Assembly: GCA_039801485.1 (NCBI GenBank)
Contig: JBDRUR010000004.1
Location: 1-40,196 of the forward strand
Length of the DNA stretch: 40,196 nucleotides
Source of the DNA: a candidate division WOR-3 bacterium
Lineage (GTDB): Bacteria > Hydrothermota > Tepidihabitantia > Tepidihabitantales > CAIPLT01
Reading direction: 5' to 3'
A program made the position numbers. Below are positions 3,001 through 9,000 of the stretch, one piece after another; the stretch's first letter is position 1, and each line of letters starts with the position of its first letter.

Positions 3001-6000
3001 ATTAAAATAAAAATTACTTTAGTTCAAACTAAAAAGGGCCAGCCTAGGGCATACCCTGAATGCACTCAGGGGGCGGAGTTCTGGCTCGGAATCGTTCTCA
3101 GAATAAGAAAAAGATTGGAGTTCAGAATAGGATGATAAATCATAGAGAGTCAAAGATGATGAATACTTGTCAGGTTCGGTGTCAGCCAAGAAGTCAGCAA
3201 TATGCTCAGGATGGCAAAGAGCAACGGCTTCAGCAACGCATTCAGAAACAGGTTGGGAATGATATTAAAAAGCGGGTTAAGGATTGGTTTTTAGCAAAAC
3301 ACGGATTTTGAAAGAATATCAGTAAATCGATTAAGAAGATAACGATACGGGATCGGGTAAAAAAGTTGTAGGGCCGTTGGAAACAACTGAATAAAACAGA
3401 AACACATCATACCCCTGAGTAGGAGAAACCGTTAATTGATAGTATATTAAGCTGAATAAAAAGGGCAGTAGCAAAACTACTGCCCTTTAGTTTAGTAAAT
3501 TTAGAAAATTATTTTATCCTTATCCCGGCTTTTATTGTGATGAAATTATCACTTGTTGATGTGCCACCACTGCTGATTGATATAAAGTCGAAATTGCCTT
3601 CAACAAAAGGACGAAACCGTGCTTCGTTAAACTTAAATTCAACACCCGCGCCTCCTTTTAAGTAGAAATTGGTCCAGCCGCCGCCGGTTGATAAATTTAA
3701 GCCAGCTAAAACATACGGATTGAATGTCGTTTGTGGGAAAAACAGCATTAAATCAAGTGGTGACCTTGTGCCGACAGAAATCATCGTTGTCCCAGAATGA
3801 AAACTTATACTTGCCAGTTGAGTCCGCAGACAGAAATTATCTGTAATTGGAAAGATTGCGCTACCATTAATAAAAAAGTGATTGTCATTTTCTTGTAAAA
3901 CATAGCCAAGACCTGCCTCAAAACCAAATGGCAAGGCAAAAGATGCCGATATTAATCCAATTGTTAATATTAACAAATACTTTTTCATTTCTCCCCCTTA
4001 TTATTTTGGTTTTAAAGTTGTTTGGCATTGTTTTTGAATCCACATCACCACCTTTGCAAAAAATTAAGCCACTGCTCATACACCATTTGGTATTTTAAAT
4101 AAAAACTATAATATGTCAAGCCTTTTTATTTATATGCTGAAAGTGTCGAAGTCAAATATTATCTTGACACTTATTGTCTTCGGCATTATGATAAATTATG
4201 AAATCTACTGGGCTTAAATGTTTGTATTTAAACAAGTCCAGTTTTTGTCTTTTATTTAAGTCCCAAAAAATCAAATTAGAGAAACGGAGGTATAATGTCA
4301 GATAGAGTTGCAATTATTGGCATTGGTGCTACTCAGTTCCGTTCGCTCTCGCCCGATGTCTCGTATAAAGAAATGATGTTTGAAGCCGCGGTTAAAGCCT
4401 ACGAAGATGCTGGCATTGACCCACGTAAGGATGTTGATACATTTGTTACTTGTGCTGAGGACTATATTGAGGGAACGAGCATCTTTGACGAATATGTGCC
4501 TGACCAGTTAGGTGCCGCATTAAAACAGATGCATACAATATCCGGTGACGGCTTACACGGTATTGCCTCTGCCTTTTTGCAGATTAAGACCGGACATTTT
4601 GATATTGCGGTTGTCGAAGCGCACTGTAAATCATCAAATATGTTAACACCCGATGGTATTGAAGCCTGTGCTCAAGACCCAATTTATAATCGCCCTTTGA
4701 AATTAAATACTCATTTTATTGCTGGTTTGGAAATGATGCGTTTCTGTTTTGAAACTAATACTTCATTTGAGCAATGTAATAAAGTCGTTATTAAAAATCG
4801 TCAGAATGCCTTGAATAATCCGATTGCCGGCCGTGCCGCAAAACTTACACTTGATGACTTCAAACACTGTGAACCAATTGCCTGCCCTTTAACCGAACTT
4901 GATATTGCCCAACCAGTTGATGGCGCGGTGGTAATTGTGTTGGCATCAGAATCAAAAGCAAAGTCATTGAGAAAAAACCCTATCTGGATTTCGGGAATTG
5001 GCTGGTGCAATGGTAGTTCTTCGTTAGAATTACGGAATTGGGTACACCCAGAATATGTTACCAAAGCCGCAGAAATGGCATACAAAATGGCAGGTATCTC
5101 AGAGCCATTAAAAGACATCTCTTTTGCCGAAGTTGACGACCGCTATTCATATAAGGAACTCCAACATCTAATGGCATTAAAACTGTGTTGCGAATGTGGC
5201 GCCGGTCGGTTAATCGAGCAAGGTGTTACTGAAATCAACGGCGAATTTCCGGTAAATCCCTCTGGTGGTGCCTTAGGAATGGGTTATTTAAATGAAGCAA
5301 CCGGATTGGCAAGATTGTATTGTGCGGTTGAACAACTGCGCGGTAATGCCGGGAAAAATCAGATAAAAAACGCCCGAACGGCATTAGTCCAAAGTTGGCG
5401 CGGACATCCAACCGCCAGCACCGCAGTTATAATTCTTGCTAATTAATTAGGAGGTTAAAATGGGAAATAGAGTTGCAATTGTTGGTGCCGGAATGACGAA
5501 ATTTGTCCGCCGTGCCCAAGAAACCGGTAAAGAACTTTGTTTCGAAGCCGCAAAAATGGCTTTGGAATCCTGCGACATGACTTTAGAACAAATTGACGCT
5601 ATTGCCTTAGGAACCGCACCAGATACTTTTGATGGCGTTCATATGAAAGGTGAATATCTTGCTGATGGCGCTGGTGCGTTTGGTAAGCCTTTTATGCGAA
5701 GTTATGTTGGCGGTGGCACCGGAGTCTTTTCAGTGATTCAAGGTTGGTATCATATTGCCTCAGGCATCATTGACACTTGCCTGGTCATCTGCGAAGAAAA
5801 GATGTCGTCTTATCAACCCCATCCGCAAGGTGCATTTTTAACAATCTTTGACCATACGACTGAACGACCATTAAAGCCAAACCTCTTATGGATTTTTGCG
5901 TTGGAAATGAACCGCTATATGCATACCTATGGCTTAAGGAAAGAAGATATTGCCCTGGTTGCAGTTAAAAACAAAAATAATGCCCTAAACCATCCTGCGG

Positions 6001-9000
6001 CACAAATTGCCTCACCAGTAACTGTTGACGATATCTTAAAATCAGAGGTGCTGGCTTGGCCGGTTCAACGACTGGATGTCAGTCCGGTTTCTGATGGCGC
6101 AGTTGCGGTGGTCTTAACCAACGAATCAATTGCCCGCCGAGTCACAAATAAACCGGTTTGGATTGAAGGCGTTGGTTGGTGTCTGGATACGACCTATTGG
6201 ACCAATCGTGATTTGTGCTACCCAAGATATGTTGAAGAAGCAGCAAGAATGGCATATAAAATGGCTGGCATCACTGACCCAAGACACCAAATTCATATTG
6301 CTGAACCATACGACCCATTTGATTACAAAGAACTTCATCATATGGAAGGACTAATGCTCTGCGGCCGAGGCGAAGCACCTCAATTGACAGTAGACGGTGT
6401 CACCCAGCGAGACGGCGAATTGCCAACCTGTCCGTCGGGCGGACTCTTAGGCGTTGGCAATCCAATCGCGGCTGCGGGATTAATGAAAGTTGCCGAACTA
6501 TTCTGGCAATTACGTGGCGAAGCCGGAAAAAGACAAGTTGCCCGAAAAGTAAAACGCGGTGTTGCCCAAGCTTGGGGCGACCTAATGCAAGTTGGCACCG
6601 TAGTCGTAGTCGGTATCTGATACCAAGGAGGTTAAAATGAAAATGAAAAAGAAAAAAAGCACTAAACTAATCAAAAGTAAAAATACTACCCGAGAACTTG
6701 AAAGTCAAGATGTCGAATCAAAACCAAATCCTAAGTTACTTAAAGGCACTGGATTAAGCGCTGATGACTTTAAGAAAGGAAAGGTGCTCACCACCCATTG
6801 GATCGGCGACACCAAATATGCCTGGGACCAAGGCGTTGCAATCGGCAAATATTTAGCAGGATTAAAACAAGGCAAGATATTGGGCGTCGAATGCCATAAA
6901 TGCGGTCGAAAAATGGTGCCACCACGAATGTTCTGTGAATGGTGTTTCAAACCAATCGACAACTGGATTGAATTAAAAGATACCGGCACTGTCAATACCT
7001 TTTCACTCTGTTATATCACCTGGGATATGAAACGAGTAAAAGATCCACAGATTCCTGCAGTGATTGAAATTGACGGCGCATCAAAAGGGATGGGTATTAT
7101 GCATCTGCTGGGCGAAGTTGACCCGAAAAAAGTTTATATCGGAATGAAAGTAAAAGCGGTCTGGAAACCAGAAAAGGAACGTGAAGGTGCAATAACTGAT
7201 ATAAGATACTGGAAACCAATAAAATAGGAGTATATATGGCTATCAAAGAAAGACTAACAAAATTAAATGAAGCCAAAGCCTGGTATGGTGAGATGCCGGT
7301 CGAAAGTTTGTATACGGTTGGTATTGCGGGCGAAAAATTCTTCCGAGCAATCAAAGAAGACGGTAAATTCTTAGGAACCAAGTGTCAAAAATGCGATCTG
7401 GTCTATGTACCACCAAGAATGTTTTGTGATTACTGTTTTGAAGAATTAAACGACTATGTCGAAGTTGCTGACTGCGGAACTTTGGAATCGTTCACATTGT
7501 TGCATATCGGTCTTGATGGTAAAAAATTGGAAAAGCCAGAAATTATCGGTTTAATAAATCTTGATGGCGCAACTACAAATATTATCCATCGGATTGGCGA
7601 AGCCGAAATTGAAGAACTCTGGCTTGGCATGCGTGTCTGCGCCGTGTTTAAACCAAAAGCAAAACGCGAAGGCTCAATCAACGATATCCTCTATTTCAAG
7701 CCGACAAACAAATAGTTAAGTTTATATGGGCGAGTAGCTTATCTTACTCGCCCATATTTCCCTACCGCTAAATTCTCTATGATTATAAAAGATGTTGATT
7801 ATGAAAATGTTAATGATTTGGTTAATTTCTGTATTCCGATAAATAAAAGAAATGACCCGTCATTTGCTACCGGTGCTGAAGAGAAGAGAAAATGGGCACT
7901 AACAATGCTAAAAAATTATGGCGAAGTGGCAAAGTTAGCATACCTCAATTCAAAACCAGTTGGGATGATTCAATATCAACCGGATTTTCCTAAAAATCTT
8001 ATTAGGATTAGATGTATCTTTGTGCCTGAGAAAAAATACACAAGAAAAGGCATTGGTAGCGCGCTTTTGAATAGTTTGATAAACGCTATGAAAAAACCAA
8101 AAGCATACTTTAATAACCAAGCACCTGCGGCAATTATTACCAATGCCTTTGAAACCCCAGCCGGATATTCCCAATTCCTTTTCTTTCGTAAAAAGGGATT
8201 TATAACCGTTAAAGATAATCAGCTCTATTATCCGCTCAAAGATAACTTTATTTATCAACCGCCAGCCAAAAAAGTATATAAACCTTTTAAAAAAGATATT
8301 GGCAAGGCATTAATCTTTTATGACCCATTCTGTCCCTTTTCGCTCTTTTTTGCTAAGGAAATTGAAAAGACCATTAACGCAATTACCGCTGATTTGTCGA
8401 TTGAGTTTATTAATACATTTGAAAAACCAAAGGAGTTTTCAAAACGCGGTGGGGATGCGGTATGTATTATCAACTGCCAACCAATAAACGTTTTTGTATT
8501 GGATAAAGAAAATTTTATTAAAGAAGTTAAAAGGGCCTTAAAAATAAGGAGGAACTATGAAGTATGAAGTCCGAACGACCTATTTTAAAAAACCAGGTAA
8601 AATTAATACAATTGAGACCCTGAAATTGGCGTTACAACGGGCAAAAGAATTAAAAATTAAAGATATTGTCTTGGCATCATCAAAAGGATGGACTGCGAAA
8701 CAGATTACTAAGATGGATATTGCCGGTTTAAATGTGGTCTGTGTGACTCACCATGCCGGTTTTGAAAAACCCGGCCAGGTTGAATTAACCGACGAAACTA
8801 AAAAATTTCTGGAAGCAAAGGGAATAAAGGTTTTTCGTGGCACACATTTCTTTTCTGGTGTTGCGCGGGCAATGCGGATGGAATTTGGCGGAGTATACAC
8901 TGGCGAAATTGTTGCAAATACTTATCGAACTTTAGGTGAAGGGATGAAAGTCTGTGTTGAGATTGCAATTATGGCACTTGATGCTGGTTTAATACCGTTT

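Follow-up and report, generated by a model that had tools for sequence, protein, structure and literature searches.

A Cys-less thiolase-fold pair with two DUF35 proteins in a candidate division WOR-3 bacterium: a putative acetone-releasing retro-aldolase of leucine breakdown

Four adjacent genes of a candidate division WOR-3 bacterium, here called A to D, encode two thiolase-fold proteins and two DUF35 proteins that we propose, with a probability of about 0.55, to constitute a retro-aldolase of leucine and isovalerate breakdown, the putative reaction being cleavage of 3-hydroxyisovaleryl-CoA to acetone and acetyl-CoA. The genes lie in a window of 40,196 nt, the whole stretch of DNA analysed, of contig JBDRUR010000004.1 (assembly GCA_039801485.1), and the host genome (G000) is a bin of 90.8% completeness. 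Genomes with the module are termed carriers; individual genomes and loci are labelled G and L, respectively.

Table 1. Features of the ABCD locus in the window
Feature	Position	Strand	Description
Promoter candidate	4164..4192	+	Predicted, sigma-70-like; TTGACA-17-TATGAT; ~100 bases 5' of gene A
Gene A	4295-5446	+	383 aa; PRK06066-like thiolase-fold subunit; predicted partner of B
Gene B	5460-6620	+	386 aa; PRK06065 thiolase-fold subunit; likely catalytic subunit
Gene C	6637-7227	+	196 aa; DUF35 zinc-ribbon/OB-fold protein
Gene D	7236-7715	+	159 aa; second DUF35 zinc-ribbon/OB-fold protein

The open reading frames are co-directional, with intergenic gaps of 13, 16 and 8 bases, and a GGAG(G) site lies 5' of every one of them. 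The promoter candidate has 11 of 12 matches and is joint best among 17 promoter-like sites, a total not above that of shuffled sequence (14.7, sd 3.8). Against the NCBIfam profiles, B scores 666 bits with PRK06065 (cut-off 455) and A scores 466 bits with PRK06066, which is its best model by 200 bits though under the cut-off of 516, and the family assignments made in the genome-wide survey's note hold with that proviso. C and D both match zf-ChsH2 and OB_ChsH2_C; all four zinc Cys are conserved in 81 of 81 homologues of C and in 79, 79, 79 and 76 of 79 homologues of D, and C has an N-terminal extension rich in Lys. Reading frames, profiles and alignments thus confirm the arrangement that had been described, namely two Cys-less thiolase-fold genes followed by two DUF35 genes.

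Alignment of B with PDB 7yvy places Gly85 at the nucleophilic Cys, Tyr284 at the HD His and Asn334 at the GHP His, each invariant in 92/92 homologues; the survey had reported the first and third of these replacements. The YDPF motif (Y284-D-P-F287) and Asp374 are likewise invariant. Gene A, also reported to be without the Cys, proves to have Ser83 in that column (6esq alignment), which is variable, as is the GHP His column (position 331); its YD/HD motif is absent, with Asp281-Asp282 instead, and W368-R369-G370 is invariant. A has invariant polar residues of its own (Glu/Asp55-66, Lys112, Arg369). Its probable role beside B is a non-catalytic one or that of shaping the active site. A hidden conserved Cys was rejected for both proteins, as neither alignment contains an invariant one. 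A and B have the fold of canonical and SCP2-type thiolases and lack the CxSG Cys, the HDxF His and the GHP His; the model of B (pLDDT 84) is a thiolase fold with Foldseek TM scores of up to 0.90. In the steroid enzymes Ltp2 and Sal the corresponding motif is YDHF/YDCY, and Sal has Gly at the nucleophile position, as described in a part of PMC12329534. That B matches this pattern, Gly replacing the nucleophile and Tyr the HD His, counts for retro-aldolase chemistry, whereas the lack in B of both known general acids (the second Tyr of Ltp2 and the Cys of Sal) counts against it.

The modelled A-B heterodimer scored 0.95 versus 0.00 for the best control, with runs agreeing in at least 95% of contacts and a partner pLDDT of at least 91; the mark used is reached by 116 of 157 solved pairs and 2 of 215 mismatched pairs, and the pass may stem from likeness, because thiolase-fold dimers have already been solved. 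All four proteins are predicted to form one complex.

B is 81-97% identical across the loci of 11 relatives, in agreement with the survey. Its further statement that the module is kept across the order was too strong, since B exceeds the cut-off in 29 of 41 relatives and in 31 of 46 genomes of the order that are at least 90% complete. A complete A-B-C-D set occurs in 72 of 91 loci, and most of the other 19 stop at a contig edge; parts are missing from L083, L086 and L090 although their flanks are long. Gene B matches about 630 stored GTDB stretches and is present in Sulfolobus acidocaldarius. As to the description 'archaeal-type', the module occurs in bacteria and archaea alike. Gene neighbourhoods vary: in about 20 Anaerolineae loci ABCD lies near fabD/fabG with nusB and tat genes in between, and carriers among the Syntrophomonadaceae (L068/L070) and Bathyarchaeia have other neighbours. 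A Chloroflexota-wide sample was uninformative on exclusion between the module and HMG-CoA lyase, with B in just 3/151 genomes and HMG-CoA lyase in none of these; the tally of 80/151 for that sample takes in the unpublished G278, on which nothing else depends.

A second Cys-less gene set, E/F, consists of a PRK06365-like thiolase-fold gene and one DUF35 gene, and the literature searched yielded no characterisation of the pair. E/F and ABCD are mutually exclusive and share a gene slot. Among 46 genomes of the WOR-3 order, 30 have only B, 11 only E, one both and four neither, with swaps within four genera; among 141 Anaerolineae, 37 have B, 29 have E and none has both (p 7e-5, a value overstated, and absences that are soft, given that the genomes are related and incomplete). 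E/F occupies the ABCD slot in G031 when compared with G028 of the same genus, and in G039 the order is E-F-B-C-D, A being missing. E resembles B in lacking the Cys, with Gly at the nucleophile column in 126/126 sequences, and in slot and neighbours; it differs in its HDAF and MHA motifs and is only ~26% identical, and E/F has one thiolase-fold and one DUF35 gene rather than two of each. Because of the differing motifs, the idea that both sets perform the same reaction rests on their distribution.

Both sets are linked to an acyl-CoA dehydrogenase (ACAD) with an IGEGT-type motif. In the Anaerolineae, an IGEG(T/A)SE dehydrogenase is found in 33 of the 37 B genomes (the pattern being absent from the other four) and 26 of the 29 E genomes, versus 34 of 75 others, and an IGEG-type gene on the same strand directly follows B in 10 genomes and E in six. 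In a 44-row tree every IGE-type sequence (30 rows) falls into a single clade (SH-aLRT 95), which includes a Bacillus amyloliquefaciens enzyme heading a leucine operon of the order ACAD-ligase-carboxylase-HMG-CoA lyase-hydratase. We infer that the IGEGT enzyme acts on isovaleryl-CoA; among solved structures it is closest to general acyl-/butyryl-CoA dehydrogenases (5ol2, 475 bits), as compared with 330 bits for isovaleryl-CoA dehydrogenase 4o5m, and a literature search on the Gly/Tyr residues of such dehydrogenases found nothing. In 26 Anaerolineae and G066 an IGEG-type dehydrogenase is present and no downstream route was found, and a Brevibacillus plasmid match (H4) has an IGEGT dehydrogenase without leucine genes nearby. 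The order CoA transferase-IGEGT ACAD-IYEGT ACAD occurs in G000 and 4/4 carrier relatives, and a hydratase gene belongs to the module operon only in some cases.

Carriers and non-carriers differ in methylcrotonyl-CoA carboxylase (MCC). The MCC beta class was found in 0/20 carriers tested, all counted on incomplete genomes, and the sole carboxyltransferase of G000 is of the PCC type (717 bits to 1vrg, 239 to MCC 3u9r). The class is present in all five Anaerolineae that were selected as possessing HMG-CoA lyase and lacking both modules, and in 14 of 19 B-less genomes of the WOR-3 phylum with an HMG-CoA synthase/thiolase/DUF35 set, MCC beta comes next after that set. Since HMG-CoA would have no source where MCC beta is lacking, it is probably not made in carriers; retention there of the entry enzyme of the leucine pathway without its carboxylase suggests that ABCD probably cleaves a leucine intermediate. 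The survey's finding that G000 has no stand-alone HMG-CoA lyase or synthase was borne out: its PF00682 matches are of the pyruvate carboxylase/oxaloacetate decarboxylase type, and a BLAST query with an HMG-CoA synthase-like sequence matched gene C only. Neither an HMG-CoA synthase nor a Cys-bearing thiolase was found at the locus. G000 does have an ordinary thiolase, a 3-hydroxyacyl-CoA dehydrogenase (HAD), a crotonase and, by BLAST, 2-oxoacid:ferredoxin oxidoreductase-like genes as a candidate upstream supply; a motif scan gave no acetone carboxylase motif. Two other roles were rejected, that of a substitute for ordinary thiolase, which is present in 35/35 near-complete relatives (34 over the cut-off), and a role in mevalonate formation, HMG-CoA reductase being absent from 5/5 genomes. 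As regards citramalyl-CoA as a substrate, glutamate-fermentation genes did not recur among module neighbours in a search covering genes other than glutamate mutase and methylaspartase.

In the route that we envisage, isovaleryl-CoA would be oxidised by the linked dehydrogenase and the resulting 3-methylcrotonyl-CoA hydrated by the ordinary crotonase; 3-hydroxyisovaleryl-CoA, a tertiary alcohol not oxidisable by HAD, would then be split at the active site of B, with Tyr284 presumably serving as base in the manner of Ltp2 and Sal, and Asp374 as candidate proton donor. The module would take over from three enzymes at once (carboxylase, methylglutaconyl-CoA hydratase and HMG-CoA lyase), and neither biotin nor CO2 would be required; because it seems to stand in for this whole segment, its substrate moves one branch upstream. 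Counted against this route are the genome G162, which has two HMG-CoA lyases as well as ABCD, the B genomes without the IGEG pattern, the genomes with an IGEG-type dehydrogenase in which no downstream route was found, the negative acetone carboxylase scan and the mutase operons described below. Literature searches returned no match for cleavage of 3-hydroxyisovaleryl-CoA to acetone or for an anaerobic isovalerate-to-acetone route. On a broader scale, we see an even chance that anaerobes from many bacterial and archaeal phyla use such a biotin- and CO2-independent route, ending in retro-aldol acetone release by two interchangeable Cys-less complexes, and that sediments, digesters and hot springs are sources of protein-derived acetone. 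If so, three families that at present bear the names 'acetyl-CoA acetyltransferase' or 'thiolase domain-containing protein' would gain a reaction, and it would become clear how anaerobes without MCC proceed past isovaleryl-CoA. The yield would be one acetyl-CoA per isovaleryl-CoA, with net substrate-level ATP equal to that of the carboxylase/lyase route by textbook stoichiometry, and the system would make acetone biologically as well as provide an enzyme with which acetone and acetyl-CoA could be joined or released in a reversible aldol step.

The main rival, which we consider unlikely, is that the complex splits, without a Cys, a C-C bond of an alpha-branched acyl-CoA derived from Ile or Val, be it 2-methyl-3-hydroxybutyryl-CoA (to acetaldehyde and propionyl-CoA), 3-hydroxyisobutyryl-CoA or, by a non-covalent route, 2-methylacetoacetyl-CoA. 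It draws on operons that also hold genes for a Phe-type (isobutyryl-CoA-like) mutase (L052, L063, L064, L075, L081 and the E loci L253-L260), MeaB, PCC beta, MCM and epimerase, on the partnership in L075 with 3-hydroxybutyryl-CoA dehydrogenase and an IYEGT dehydrogenase, and on the example of Ltp2, which releases propionyl-CoA. The Ltp2 substrate is a C3 steroid side chain, according to a part of PMC12329534. However, Ile already has a route in G000 through its thiolase, HAD and crotonase, as does Val through the mutase, most dehydrogenases directly beside the module are of the IGEGT type, and the restriction of MCC to non-carriers would be left unexplained. (The count of 0/141 Anaerolineae for the Phe-type mutase DNA pattern is an artefact, as their sequences read RMF/RLF.) Distinctly less probable is an unrelated acyl-CoA substrate, or acyl transfer through a non-Cys residue, with the leucine links reflecting a shared lifestyle: the related genomes are not independent, and neighbours differ in the Syntrophomonadaceae and Bathyarchaeia, but two different Cys-less systems both adjoin an IGEGT dehydrogenase on the same strand, and exclusion is seen in two phyla.

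The survey had proposed a stand-in for HMG-CoA lyase or citramalyl-CoA lyase; in the former case 3-methylcrotonyl-CoA would be carboxylated by the PCC-type or another carboxylase. The retro-aldolase part of that claim survives, Cys-free cleavage fitting motifs and precedents; the lyase part we now judge improbable, given the MCC counts above. It would agree with the lack of HMG-CoA lyase in 5/5 WOR-3 genomes tested, with the leucine-type dehydrogenase, with the linked CoA transferase, which is closest to glutaconate CoA-transferase, and with Ltp3/Ltp4, whose substrate is HMG-like. Parts of PMC8708139 and PMC6593523 term these proteins aldol lyases for C24-branched sterols. Yet module and HMG-CoA lyase do not exclude each other in the Anaerolineae (2/37 B genomes vs 10/104, p 0.73), and the lyase-like genes of carriers G360 and G446 cluster with SucCD-like genes, not MCC. 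Equally improbable is that ABCD runs in reverse, adding acetyl-CoA to acetone so as to use acetone or to make isovaleryl-CoA as a primer, or that it hydrates 3-methylcrotonyl-CoA before cleaving it. The nearby fabD/fabG genes, the invariant polar residues of A and the inconstant operon hydratase would suit these variants; the fab linkage, however, is synteny of a single class across intervening genes, and the CoA transferase retains its catalytic Glu, for which reason it was rejected as the AibAB-type decarboxylase of isovaleryl-CoA synthesis. We know of no acetone source for these hosts.

Acetone release from 3-hydroxyisovaleryl-CoA remains our preferred reading, and the proposed enzyme may be set beside several known systems. 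The steroid side-chain retro-aldolases Ltp2-ChsH2 (PDB 6ok1) and Sal-Shy (PDB 9myr) share with B the SCP2-type thiolase fold (TM 0.81 and 0.83), a DUF35 partner, the YDxF motif and the absence of the nucleophilic Cys. They are only 22-24% identical to B, they form homodimers and their DUF35 partner is fused to a hydratase, whereas ABCD is a predicted heterodimer with two free DUF35 proteins, and where they have the general acids Tyr344 (Ltp2) and Cys304 (Sal), B has Asn334 and Pro286, its GNP loop containing no conserved Tyr or Cys. Ltp3-Ltp4 (PRK08313, PRK07937), of actinobacterial C24-branched sterol side-chain breakdown, resemble A-B in being encoded by a pair of thiolase-like paralogous genes, and PRK08313 is the second-best model of B; scores of 270 and 113 bits nevertheless lie below the respective cut-offs of 514 and 419. 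L089 has a pair of the Ltp3/Ltp4 type with two DUF35 genes beside ABCD, and its PRK08313 protein is 33% identical to B and without YDPF; ABCD has no sterol context. The archaeal thiolase/HMG-CoA synthase/DUF35 complex supplies the nearest solved folds (27-30% identity) and likewise has a DUF35 partner, but it retains the nucleophilic Cys and both His, none of which ABCD has, and includes an HMG-CoA synthase, found in such a set in non-carrier WOR-3 genomes and not in G000. Finally, the Liu/yng leucine-isovalerate pathway comprises dehydrogenase, MCC, methylglutaconyl-CoA hydratase and HMG-CoA lyase, as outlined in a part of PMC9636800. Its entry dehydrogenase is of the same clade as the linked IGEGT enzyme; in G000, where MCC beta and HMG-CoA lyase were not found, the ABCD module is proposed to take the place of the three later steps.

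The four genes that the genome-wide survey's note had described as a Cys-less thiolase-fold pair followed by two DUF35 genes, designated here A to D and jointly ABCD, were confirmed as such by family assignment, active-site columns and gene order. The intergenic gaps measure 8-16 bases, and each gene is preceded by a ribosome-binding site. Close homologues that bear organism names assign the host to WOR-3.

Features of the ABCD module, its surroundings and related loci. Unprefixed positions refer to the window; G000 is the host genome and L numbers are gene loci; E and F are a second Cys-less pair (PRK06365-like thiolase-fold gene and DUF35-like gene).
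Feature	Position	Orientation	Assignment or remark
Low-complexity segment	3060-3311		between a T9SS protein gene and the gene at 3509-3988
Gene A	4295-5446	co-directional with B, C, D	nearest family PRK06066 (466 bits, below cut-off 516)
Gene B	5460-6620	co-directional with A, C, D	PRK06065 member (666 bits, cut-off 455)
Gene C	6637-7227	co-directional with A, B, D	DUF35 protein
N-terminal extension of C	6637-6750		long, Lys-rich, as in F of L101
Gene D	7236-7715	co-directional with A, B, C	DUF35 protein
GNAT-family gene	7779-8567	+	between D and the PK_C-domain gene
PK_C-domain gene	8557-9132	+	small protein, PF02887
F with long Lys-rich N-terminal extension	L101:6599-7162		DUF35-like, WOR-3
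Presumed HIT-family gene	L110:6400-6834; also L111, L112, L113 and E loci		probable family, from the N-terminus
E/F pair	L250:6642-8519		locus lacks acyl-CoA neighbours
Ltp4/Ltp3-type pair	L089:5579-7797		true PRK07937/PRK08313 pair, two DUF35 genes and EchA19-like hydratase; Chloroflexi genome
Phe-type B12 acyl-CoA mutases	G000:C50:5660-7297; also L214-L217, L253-L260		

Aligned against 7yvy, B carries Gly85 in place of the nucleophilic Cys, Tyr284 in place of the HD His and Asn334 in place of the GHP His; 92 of 92 sequences share these residues, the full YDPF motif and Asp374. In A, the Cys column is variable and holds Ser83, while Asp281 takes the His/Tyr position; no invariant Cys was found in A (78 sequences) or in B (92 sequences). 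B is predicted to adopt an SCP2-type thiolase fold (model pLDDT 84), with TM scores of 0.90 to 6et9 and of 0.81 and 0.83, respectively, to the steroid side-chain aldolases Ltp2 and Sal. The modelled A-B complex scored 0.95 against 0.00 for the best control, with contacts agreeing between runs to at least 95% and partner pLDDT of at least 91; the mark it reached is attained by 116 of 157 solved pairs and 2 of 215 mismatched pairs, and the score may reflect likeness only, because thiolase-fold dimers have already been solved.

Among the best 80 of approximately 630 stored GTDB stretches with a match to B are Anaerolineae, Dehalococcoidia, Acidobacteriota, Planctomycetota, Deltaproteobacteria, Syntrophomonadaceae, Bathyarchaeia and Baldrarchaeum, and the full A-B-C-D set is present in 72 of 91 loci. 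Since an ordinary thiolase occurs in 35 of 35 near-complete relatives, a role for ABCD as its substitute is ruled out.

Relatives without ABCD carry the Cys-less thiolase-fold gene E (502 bits against PRK06365, below the cut-off of 695) together with F, a single DUF35-like gene. The nucleophile column of E holds Gly in all 126 of the 126 sequences, and E has the motifs HDAF and MHA. Among genomes of the order at least 90% complete (n = 46), B alone is present in 30, E alone in 11, both in one and neither in four; one of those four retains part of B at the end of a contig. In Anaerolineae (n = 141), B is found in 37 genomes, E in 29 and both in none, E being called at an E-value of 1e-60 or better, so that weaker homologues may fall below the threshold. 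The p values for this exclusion (1e-6 in the order, 7e-5 in Anaerolineae) both overstate the significance, because related genomes are not independent. The switch is seen inside four genera, and E/F in one genome (G031) is flanked by the same genes as ABCD in a member of the same genus (G028); another genome, G039, has the order E-F-B-C-D and no trace of A. For the L250 locus, one close homologue carries the name of a Ca. Portnoybacteria bin.

Neighbours recurring near both modules are acyl-CoA dehydrogenases, Phe-type B12 mutases, hydratases and CoA transferases. The 13 dehydrogenases in 80 ABCD loci comprise six downstream of D reading IGEG(T/A)SE, six upstream reading IYEG and one unclassed; the 11 in 80 E loci comprise eight IGEG enzymes, in two related groups, and three IYEG enzymes. 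Across Anaerolineae, a sample overlapping the loci of the best 80 B matches, 33 of 37 genomes with B and 26 of 29 with E show the IGEG pattern, against 34 of the 75 with neither (a reversed-pattern control gave one match); 10 genomes place the enzyme's gene just downstream of B, and six just downstream of E. The best of 854 plasmid-collection records, a Bacillus amyloliquefaciens dehydrogenase with the motif IGEGTSE, heads an operon, which we take to be yng, encoding a ligase, biotin carboxylase, HMG-CoA lyase, hydratase and carboxylase beta subunit. In a quick 44-row tree with a long G000 branch, it forms one clade with all IGE rows, the host's included (30 of 44 rows, SH-aLRT 95). The Gly at the IGEG position presumably admits a 3-methyl branch in the substrate; solved-structure matches of the linked dehydrogenase favour general acyl-/butyryl-CoA dehydrogenases. 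A CoA transferase-IGEGT-IYEGT operon is present in the host and 4 of 4 carrier relatives, the non-carrier G066 also has both dehydrogenases, and some Gly-type dehydrogenase, not necessarily of the same clade as the IGE rows, occurs in 5 of 5 distant carriers. In the mutases, the residue before the Phe varies (RQF, RMF, RLF, REF), and some read AFHYPTL in place of AFDLPTL.

The host's single carboxyltransferase is PCC-type. A beta subunit of the methylcrotonyl-CoA carboxylase (MCC) class was found in 0 of 20 carriers (5 from WOR-3, 5 from Anaerolineae and, located by way of the loci, 10 from further phyla or classes), three of which have no full-length carboxyltransferase and one of which (G166) has a third class; it occurs in 5 of 5 control Anaerolineae picked for an HMG-CoA lyase and neither module. 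Two genomes, G402 and G336, have MCC-hydratase-carboxylase-lyase clusters. The weak thiolase match retrieved from 19 WOR-3-phylum genomes without B has archaeal-type EVHDCF and GHP motifs (Cys motif captured in 13 of 19) and belongs to an HMG-CoA synthase/DUF35 set, with MCC beta within the retrieved stretch around that set in 14 of 19. In L423-L440, from WOR-3 sister classes (G055, G093, G081 and others), MCC beta directly follows the HMG-CoA synthase/thiolase/DUF35 set, often joined by a hydratase and biotin carboxylase. From these distributions, MCC with an HMG-CoA step, ABCD and E/F appear to be three alternatives downstream of the same dehydrogenase. The survey's further proposal, an acyl-CoA retro-aldolase replacing HMG-CoA or citramalyl-CoA lyase, holds in part: B fits the base/Gly pattern of Ltp2 and Sal, but no MCC beta was found in the 20 carriers, and B does not exclude HMG-CoA lyase, which occurs in 2 of 37 B genomes versus 10 of 104 others in Anaerolineae. 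HMG-CoA-lyase-like genes also cluster with SucCD-like genes in L321, L322 and L324 (Anaerolineae), where other genes, judged from their N-termini, are presumably PrpF and LeuCD homologues; an itaconate/aconitate route is possible there.

3-Methylcrotonyl-CoA can be hydrated by crotonase even without MCC, and the host has a crotonase. The product would be a tertiary alcohol, 3-hydroxyisovaleryl-CoA, closed to the oxidation step of beta-oxidation, and retro-aldol cleavage, the kind of step performed by YDxF aldolases, would convert it to acetone and acetyl-CoA. We consider it somewhat better than an even bet (roughly 0.55) that ABCD cleaves this alcohol of the leucine route; the module is probably a thiolase-fold aldolase variant with a specific candidate substrate, and the leucine breakdown route probably new. 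Against the acetone reading, the mutase, 3-hydroxyacyl-CoA dehydrogenase and IYEG genes of some operons suit isoleucine- or valine-derived substrates, B has neither of the described catalytic acids, the motifs of E and B differ, 26 Anaerolineae have the dehydrogenase but no downstream route that we could find, and G162 carries ABCD plus two lyases.

Among other genes around the modules, the PK_C-domain gene is a flanking gene of ABCD in several genomes from WOR-3, and of E/F in 17 of the 80 metagenome loci; it may be either a synteny marker or a regulator. None of the other loci searched contains a homologue of the GNAT-family gene, which is therefore probably a local insertion. The presumed HIT-family gene adjoins ABCD in five loci and E/F in 16. 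The low-complexity segment repeats short purine-rich words, and its 83-aa ORF looks spurious.

A search mostly of literature outside subscription journals found no paper on the module families or the proposed reaction, although the supplements of bioRxiv 10.1101/2024.07.05.601840 may list these paralogues; that preprint and PMC12960953 treat Cys-bearing thiolase/DUF35 complexes, and PMC13677872 cites acetone from leucine for Vibrio and Pseudomonas. The Ltp4/Ltp3-type locus in L089 lies directly upstream of ABCD. PMC12329534 describes Ltp2 and Sal as retro-aldolases of the thiolase fold that are bound to DUF35 domains and use the YDHF/YDCY Tyr as catalytic base; Sal has Gly at the nucleophile position. 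B matches the Tyr-motif/Gly half of this pattern but lacks both described acid residues, and the nearest two-subunit precedent is Ltp3/Ltp4 (PMC8708139, PMC6593523).
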